A stretch of 972 nucleotides of DNA, from NCBI RefSeq assembly GCF_003334335.1, contig NZ_QOWQ01000133.1; one strand, 5' to 3'. Of the stretch, positions 1 to 972 are shown piece after piece (within the stretch, counting starts at the first letter, position 1; the number at the start of each line of letters is the position of its first letter). The translations under genes were made by a program, and so were the position numbers. The stretch is from Escherichia coli (GTDB taxonomy: Bacteria; Pseudomonadota; Gammaproteobacteria; Enterobacterales; Enterobacteriaceae). Under the pieces are notes generated by a model. That model saw only the letters and a program-made list of their open reading frames with translations. It did not search any database and was not told where the DNA came from.

Positions 1-236
1 GCAATACCGTTCACCACCCGGTAAACACGGGCCGGTCGTTTACCTCCGGCCATGTACTCGTCCGTTTCAGCCAGCATTCCGGGAGCATCAAGCTGTACCT
101 GCTGTTGTGGTACCGAAAGCCTTGCTGCCCCCATCTCGCGCCCGAGCGCGCAAAAGAAAACCCGCGCATAGGCGGGCTCCAGAAGCAGCGGTTCATTGAA
201 TGCTGCTGCAATAATGTGTGAAAGATTACGTCTCAC
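1..236 (-). CDS. C: Head maturation protease / minor capsid protein C (lambda gpC-like, S49 peptidase family); N-terminal 78 codons only (3'-partial, continues beyond position 1). Proposed start GTG at 236..234.
   Basis: Hand translation of the minus strand from GTG at 236..234: MRRNLSHIIAAAFNEPLLLEPAYARVFFCALGREMGAARLSVPQQQVQLDAPGMLAETDEYMAGGKRPARVYRVVNGI…, open to the window edge. This closely parallels the lambda gpC N-terminus as I recall it (MTAELRNLPHIASMAFNEPLMLEPAYARVFFCAL … RQARSYQVMNGIAVLPVSG). The frame is closed upstream by TAG at 275..273, and GTG 236 is the only ATG/GTG/TTG between that stop and the conserved region. Not in the ORF track because no stop falls inside the window. 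Confidence 0.8.
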   Translation of the reverse strand, partial: MRRNLSHIIAAAFNEPLLLEPAYARVFFCALGREMGAARLSVPQQQVQLDAPGMLAETDEYMAGGKRPARVYRVVNGI

Positions 237-972
237 GTGGTGTTGTCTCCTCTTCCGGCCTGCGACTCTCCGCTATCTGCTGCTGATACGCCTGCGCTAT
301 CCACACCGGACGTGAGAGTCCGGCTTTTTCCCGCTCTGCAGATTCCCTGACCTGCTGGCGGAAAATGTCCTGATAATCCTCGCCCATCAGCGCCAGCTCT
401 TTCTCATACGTGCTCAGTCCGGCCTCAATGCGCATCACTGATTCCTGAACCTCCTTGAGCCCGTCAATGGCCATTCTTCCGGCTCCAATCCACTCAGCCC
501 GTGACCAGGCTGATCGCGCCTGATAAAAATCAAAACGTGCCCGTGGCGGACGAATAATCCCCCGAAGAAGTGCCTCTTCCAGCCAGCAGGAAAACATCTG
601 CGTGGCCAGCCGGGACGCAATAAATTTTCGCCGCCCCATAAAATAGCGCCACGACTCATTGGCGGATGCGCGGGCACTTGAATAACTGACCTTCGAGTAA
701 TCACGGGACAACTGTTCGTAGGAAACGCCAAGACCGGCGGCGATATACCGCAGCAGCGCCTGTTCAAGCGCCGAAAATCCATTGTCTGAATCCTGCGCGG
801 TCTGAAGTTTCAGATCATCACCGGGGAAAAGGTGCGGAATTTTGACACCGCCCAGCGTCACGCTATTCGTGTCATACCAGGTGGAGAACTTATCCAGAAT
901 ATTAATAAGCGGATTATCCTTCTGCCCCTGCGGCGCACCGGCGATATATTCAAAGGCCTTTTCGGTATCAAG
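226..972 (-). CDS. B: Phage portal protein, lambda gpB family; C-terminal part only (5'-partial, N-terminus lies beyond position 972). Stop codon TAA at 228..226.
   Basis: Minus-strand frame is open from the window edge at 972 to TAA at 228..226. The track starts the ORF at GTG 861, but my hand translation of 862..972 in the same frame has no stop (…LDTEKAFEYIAGAPQGQKDNPLINILDKFSTWYDTNSV-TLGGVKIPHLFPGDD…), so the gene is truncated by the window, not started at 861. Motifs such as SYSSARASANESWRYFMGRRKFIASR resemble lambda-family portal proteins as I remember them. Position immediately upstream of, and overlapping, a gpC-like gene matches the lambda order B then C. No search was run. Confidence 0.8.
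   Translation of the reverse strand, partial: LDTEKAFEYIAGAPQGQKDNPLINILDKFSTWYDTNSVTLGGVKIPHLFPGDDLKLQTAQDSDNGFSALEQALLRYIAAGLGVSYEQLSRDYSKVSYSSARASANESWRYFMGRRKFIASRLATQMFSCWLEEALLRGIIRPPRARFDFYQARSAWSRAEWIGAGRMAIDGLKEVQESVMRIEAGLSTYEKELALMGEDYQDIFRQQVRESAEREKAGLSRPVWIAQAYQQQIAESRRPEEETTPRET
247..251 (-). promoter_or_regulatory. Shine-Dalgarno sequence (AGGAG within AAGAGGAGA) for the gpC-like gene, embedded in the 3' end of the portal coding sequence
   Basis: Minus-strand sequence reads ggAAGAGGAGAcaacaccacGTG; AGGAG lies 10 nt upstream of the proposed GTG start at 236. Spacing is at the long end of the usual range. Confidence 0.5.

Follow-up and report, generated by a model that had tools for sequence, protein, structure and literature searches.

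A variable segment in the N-terminal extension of a phage 21-type prohead protease carried by E. coli prophages

Results

The portal/protease junction of a phage 21-type head module

The DNA that we analyzed, a 972-nt stretch from E. coli (hereafter the window), is the portal/protease junction of a lambda-like head module of the phage 21 type (Table 1). The upstream gene encodes the homolog of lambda gpB and phage 21 gp4, and the full-length portal protein is 61% identical to lambda gpB. The protease gene begins at a GTG codon (236..234, minus strand) that lies 10 nt downstream of an AGGAG sequence (251..247). It overlaps the end of the portal gene by 11 nt (window 226-236) and its frame exits at the window start, such that the 78 complete codons within the window translate as MRRNLSHIIAAAFNEPLLLEPAYARVFFCALGREMGAARLSVPQQQVQLDAPGMLAETDEYMAGGKRPARVYRVVNGI. 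Phage 21 shares the 11-nt overlap, the GTG start and the ribosome binding site, the last being annotated in OL657228 at the position equivalent to the AGGAG, whereas in lambda the protease gene has an ATG start and overlaps the portal gene by 20 nt.

Table 1. Features of the 972-nt window, with coordinates given from its first letter.
Feature	Position	Strand	Basis
Portal gene, C-terminal 248 codons and stop (228..226)	226..972	minus	Translation; portal annotation in PhiR5_1 and phage 21
Shine-Dalgarno AGGAG of the gpC-like gene, within the end of the portal gene	247..251	minus	Read from sequence
gpC / phage 21 gp5-type prohead protease-scaffold gene, first 78 codons and 2 nt	1..236	minus	Translation; annotated homologs
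Conserved N-terminal block, residues 1-32	141..236	minus	Motif F13-N14-x-P16-L17-L18 .. P21 .. A24 .. L31; two predicted helices
Divergent segment REMGAARLSVPQQQVQLDAPGMLAETDEYMAGGKRPARV, residues 33-71	24..140	minus	Predicted beta-hairpin 39-42/47-50, helix 51-65, lower-confidence connector 66-72
YRVVNGI, residues 72-78	1..23	minus	Conservation resumes; SppA-like S49 fold begins

The sequence is already known, as it belongs to the lineage of phage 21 gene 5 (GenBank M81255), which is common in E. coli prophages. Escherichia phage PhiR5_1 (PV340545) matches the window with 100% identity, and phage 21 (OL657228, M81255) does so over 972 of 972 nt with 97.2-97.3% nucleotide identity. Lambda is so diverged that megablast finds no match between it and the window. 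Window DNA was found in 2,035 of 5,426 complete E. coli genomes, and in about a third of the 5,426 (~1,930) a 1.5-kb stretch spanning the window is present uninterrupted at an identity of at least 95%. In both PhiR5_1 and phage 21 the head genes are ordered W-portal-protease-D-E (decoration, then major capsid protein), with gene 4 annotated as the portal and gene 5 as a capsid protease/scaffold or 'head-tail preconnector'. Our tests on the full-length protein used the 501-aa protease of PhiR5_1, the phage identical to the window; phage 21 gp5 (M81255; OL657228 CPT_21_05), the same gene in the same lineage, is 94% identical to it at the amino acid level over 501 residues.

Apart from the two genes, little was detected in the window. 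A search of Rfam gave nothing above threshold in the window (best match ssnA, 17.4 bits against a gathering score of 37.3, E = 0.16), repeats in the window were limited to 12-14 nt, at chance level, and no promoter-like sites were found in it on either strand, positions 1-150 included. Terminator-like sites were likewise absent from positions 1-150 on either strand; three terminator-like hairpins occur in the remainder of the window, all within coding sequence, where 0.8 would be expected from shuffled sequences. One of the three, followed by a T-run, is located at window 306-323 on the plus strand, antisense to the portal gene.

Divergence from lambda gpC is concentrated in residues 33-71

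Lambda gpC (NP_040584, S49 family peptidase) occupies the same place after the portal gene and has in common with the window lineage both the N-terminal motif and the Ser/Lys pair of the S49 core, with an overall identity of 53% between the 439-aa lambda protein and the 501-aa PhiR5_1 protease. A preliminary description of the window, made from the letters alone, had proposed that the first ~30 residues and a downstream RVYRVVNGI block resemble lambda gpC, and that the segment between them does not. Alignment bears this out: residues 3-32 share 80% identity with lambda gpC and conservation resumes from Y72 (YRVVNGI, residues 72-78), whereas in residues 33-71 (window 140..24) only 10 of 39 positions (26%) are identical, compared with 165 of 249 (66%) in the remainder of residues 3-290. 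This contrast between the segment and its flanks exceeds chance (Fisher exact p = 2.2e-6). The divergence had been placed within window positions 1-150, which indeed contain the segment (24..140), and the lambda counterpart, which had been given as AGQLGISSLTDAVSGDSLTAQEALATLALSGDDDGPRQ, is an exact match to gpC of NC_001416.

The same pattern is seen in the DNA, where nucleotide identity to lambda is 0.50-0.53 over codons 30-60, compared with 0.7-0.8 on either side; taken over lambda, HK225 and Gifsy-1, the values are 0.40-0.53 over these codons and ~0.7 on both sides. Within the segment, the turn glycine of the predicted hairpin (the G46 column) is common in the family and kept in lambda, but is replaced by Q in the window lineage, which also has one extra residue, located at a column that is gapped in 75% of homologs.

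The C-terminal part of the portal shows dips of its own in nucleotide identity to lambda (0.38-0.50), at windows 810-930, 510-570 and 240-330 on the minus strand, corresponding to codons about -240..-200, -110..-90 and -30..-1 from the protease start and including the C-terminal tail. The segment in the protease is one among several such variable patches.

The segment is variable throughout the protease family

We searched residues 1-300 against 1.84 billion cluster representatives, which returned 2,717 proteins at E <= 1e-30, and aligned the 134 N-terminus-covering proteins among the best 150 of the 2,717 together with eight phage proteins (n = 142). Ahead of the protease core, window residues 13-31 carry the motif FNxPLxLEPxYA...AL, and across the 142 homologs the commonest residue accounts for 65% of sequences at F13, 82% at N14, 94% at P16, 84% at L17, 80% at P21, 77% at A24 and 79% at L31. 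Conservation is back immediately after the segment, with corresponding shares of 80% at Y72, 89% at G77 and 98% at A79. Mean column entropy was 2.14 bits over residues 3-32, 3.07 bits over residues 33-71 and 1.79 bits over residues 72-290, the protease core, and the most variable 35-residue interval of the first 295 residues begins at residue 37. The spacing between the L31 and Y72 columns ranges from 27 to 50 residues, and a few positions within the segment (R34, G36, L40 and G46) are semi-conserved family-wide.

Since this stretch is the most variable one in the 142 homologs, and varies in length as well, its divergence from lambda is that of a region which varies throughout the family, in keeping with the earlier suggestion that such a difference is normal for lambdoid phages. 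Both the pairwise and the multiple alignments, read with per-column conservation, show a segment that is conserved neither with lambda nor across homologs.

At the level of substitutions, dN was 0.35-0.93 in the segment compared with 0.11-0.35 in the flanks, a two- to four-fold elevation. Synonymous sites were saturated in every informative comparison (pS of 0.63-0.80 in the segment), so that relaxed constraint and diversifying selection are indistinguishable by dN/dS.

On the DNA of the N-terminal block, we observed that window 144-229 (minus strand, codons 3-31) is the sole stretch that megablast aligns to phi80/mEp237-type phages (query 743-828, 82-83% nucleotide identity), and that the same stretch also aligns to the corresponding prophages in K-12-derived strains. 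As the only stretch that megablast can align, the N-terminal block is the most conserved DNA of the portal-protease junction.

An S49 core preceded by an extension of predicted structure

In the full-length protein, Pfam Peptidase_S49 (PF01343) covers residues 146-293 (E = 2.6e-35), a domain that lies outside the window. Sequence matches to SppA proteins of the PDB start at residue 77 (phmmer E = 3.5e-16), and Foldseek matched SppA structures 4KWB and 3RST with E = 8e-20 and a TM score of 0.81-0.87 on the target over 215-226 columns; residues ~77-290 share the S49 fold of B. subtilis and E. coli SppA (3RST, 4KWB, 3BF0). Because SppA is matched from residue 77 onward, and no match reaches the first ~75 residues of the phage protease, these residues form an extension before the S49 core. 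SppA is itself a membrane-associated cellular enzyme and not a capsid assembly protein. Ser162 and Lys214 (lambda S166 and K218), which from the SppA family we take to be the catalytic pair, are invariant in 99-sequence alignments. Judged by sequence, the S49 domain, the Ser/Lys pair, the position of the gene and the N-terminal motif all point to membership in the lambda gpC / phage 21 gp5-type family of protease-scaffold proteins, within the phage 21 lineage.

We modeled the protease with AlphaFold2 from a 99-sequence alignment (mean pLDDT 94). The model places helices at residues 6-12 and 21-35 and a hairpin at 39-42/47-50; residues 51-65 are predicted to form a further helix, and residues 66-72 a connector that leads to the first strand of the core. 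Its pLDDT is 92-93 for residues 11-60 (>90 for residues 33-60) and about 70 for residues 61-70. In an AlphaFold model of lambda gpC the same elements follow one another at equivalent positions, and the connector is predicted with lower confidence (pLDDT <50 at lambda residues 66-68). Because both models were built from largely the same alignment, their agreement carries less weight than it appears to. Taken at face value, the models predict that the segment keeps one topology in both lineages, consisting of a beta-hairpin, an amphipathic helix and a short flexible connector. The segment had originally been called a variable linker, and it is certainly variable, in both entropy (3.07 bits) and length (27-50 residues), but on the model a true flexible linker would comprise only its last ten or so residues (about 61-72), with the rest predicted to be a small, sequence-tolerant structural element.

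A BFVD fold search named no lambda gpC among the matches listed, and those of its matches that reached the N-terminus had an rmsd of >10 Å. No experimental structure of a gpC-type protein was found in a search of the PDB, that of lambda gpC never having been resolved (PMC12617516), and in the literature searched we found no report on the structure or function of the N-terminal extension of gpC-type proteases.

Vertical descent as the probable explanation, and its alternatives

Across both genes, each of the 60-nt windows shown has a nucleotide identity of 0.92-1.00 to phage 21, and the values do not step at the segment. Ranked by the segment, the relatives fall in the order phage 21 > P0013/HNSQ2209 type > Gifsy-1/P0003 > lambda group, and the flanks give the same order. 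The flat identity to phage 21 and the shared order of relatives together indicate that there is no recombination junction in the window, and on these sequence comparisons the segment's difference from lambda is one of vertical descent, without a mosaic junction in the window.

The closest named relative outside E. coli is STM2605 of Gifsy-1, a Salmonella prophage homolog of lambda gpC, which is 71% identical to the window lineage over the first 150 residues, with 38% identity in the segment compared with 75% in the protease core. It nevertheless shares features of the 21-type segment, namely the I/V-P hairpin turn and the '..F/YMA.GK' end of the helix. A second prophage type, with ~74% nucleotide identity across the region, was observed on the E. 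coli HNSQ2209 chromosome (NZ_CP137737; L010 1824-3440), where the protease has 538 aa and its variable segment, KEMGAGSLAVPQQAVQLDADGMQLAVTDYMAGGQRPAKS, is intermediate between those of phage 21 and Gifsy-1, implying graded divergence inside the lineage.

We consider the best explanation to be long vertical divergence, within a stretch under weak constraint, between the lineages of phage 21 and lambda, rather than a recombination junction, and assign it a probability of about 0.88. Under mosaic exchange, the segment would have been imported from another lambdoid lineage and would have a history unlike that of its flanks. Mosaicism is in fact seen in this region in phage D2 (OM475427), a relative whose mosaic is of natural or laboratory origin and for which our literature search found no publication. 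D2 combines a portal of the 21 type (0.93-1.00 identity) with a protease core of the same type, and additionally carries a lambda patch. This patch of ~530 nt (about 3015-3545, equivalent to window ~1-450 plus sequence past the window start) has 93-100% identity to lambda per 60-nt window and spans from ~70 codons before the portal stop to protease codon ~107. The junctions of the patch, however, are found in conserved sequence at a clear distance outside the segment rather than at its edges, and the N-terminal extension moved as a whole with the portal C-terminus. In the window itself, the uniform identity to phage 21, the identical ranking of relatives for segment and flanks, and the contiguity of 21-type sequence across the segment in ~1,930 E. 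coli genomes all argue against an import. Mosaic exchange is thereby largely refuted for the window, and we regard it as highly improbable. The preliminary description had offered either a distinct lambdoid lineage or mosaic exchange, of which the former holds, the lineage being that of phage 21 (97.3% nucleotide identity), and the latter does not, as no mosaic is detectable in the window.

The segment could alternatively determine specificity in a lineage-specific manner and be subject to diversifying or co-evolutionary selection, for instance by fitting the protease to the C-terminal region of its own portal or to its scaffold. Consistent with this, the segment is predicted by the model to be structured and not disordered, and the two amino acid differences between phage 21 and the window in the 78 protease codons, R39S and L49F (two of the four nonsynonymous differences in the first 290 codons), both fall in the segment's 39 codons, with zero synonymous differences there. 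These counts are tiny, however, saturation of dS means that a dN/dS >1 is not demonstrable, and the semi-conservation of R34, G36, L40 and G46 is as expected of a plain structural element. In D2, the C-terminal ~70 residues of the portal and the N-terminal ~107 residues of the protease moved together as one lambda patch, and in lambda, C and B (protease and portal) have been listed as interacting, and B/C/Nu3 as an initiator complex (PMC3224144); yet D2 is a single event, and an uninformative one because adjacent DNA travels together anyway. We hold a specificity role for the segment to be unsupported and very unlikely. As for an artefact, in which a compensated frameshift or sequencing error relative to lambda would have left homologous DNA in another frame, nothing favors it beyond the abrupt drop in identity. 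None of the other frames at window 24-140 matches the lambda segment, which excludes a frameshift, the identical protein sequence occurs in many independent phage and E. coli records, and both Gifsy-1 and the HNSQ2209-type prophage carry the lineage's V/I-P...D..M.. pattern in frame, leaving this explanation with a vanishingly small probability.

One further record was considered as a second mosaic and rejected. 'Escherichia phage 204576' (CP025907.1, 1-2767) showed 61% identity by tblastn from residue 33 on. Compared with PhiR5_1, the record gives one 94.9% alignment in which numerous small indels repeatedly interrupt the frames of portal and protease, marking it as of low quality, and the indels look like uncorrected long-read error rather than biology.

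Discussion

In lambda, gpC is the prohead protease and takes part with the portal gpB and the scaffold Nu3 in an ill-defined initiator (PMC3224144, PMC12617516). These sources, citing Medina et al. 2010, describe gpC as processing head proteins and itself in the course of prohead maturation.

The protease of the window lineage has an SppA-like S49 serine protease core from about residue 77 onward and, ahead of it, an extension of ~75 residues. Strong conservation marks the first 32 residues of this extension; over the next ~40, protein-level evolution is two to four times faster, and insertions and deletions are tolerated in all lineages. The extension may serve assembly, possibly in that it docks the protease onto the portal/initiator complex or regulates how the protease oligomerises, in which case the conserved 32-residue block may provide an essential contact and the variable hairpin-helix a tolerant element, probably surface-exposed or acting as a spacer. 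A more specific version of this proposal would make the N-terminal extension a portal-docking module, whose first 32 residues form the contact and whose variable hairpin-helix tunes lineage specificity while co-evolving with the C-terminal region of the portal; the D2 patch would then be a co-adapted unit. We consider this version unlikely.

The finding is an ordinary one, as uneven divergence between the head proteins of lambda and phage 21 is expected. Its wider value is as a pointer, since the conservation map shows where to cut for lambda/21 chimeras or truncations, and such constructs would address the recruitment of the protease to the portal-containing initiator.

Beyond the N-terminal region, a nested in-frame scaffold gene from the C-terminal third is annotated in both phage 21 (gp6, CPT_21_06) and lambda (nu3). 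In the scaffold part of the 21-type protein (residues ~315-455; L001 about 4680-5100, outside the window) we observed three tandem copies of a ~50-residue unit with the pattern ..IM....EAKGRE.LA..LA..PGMTVE.AR.IL...P.., of which one copy was found in lambda. Three copies compared with one account for much of the difference in length between the 501-aa and 439-aa proteins.
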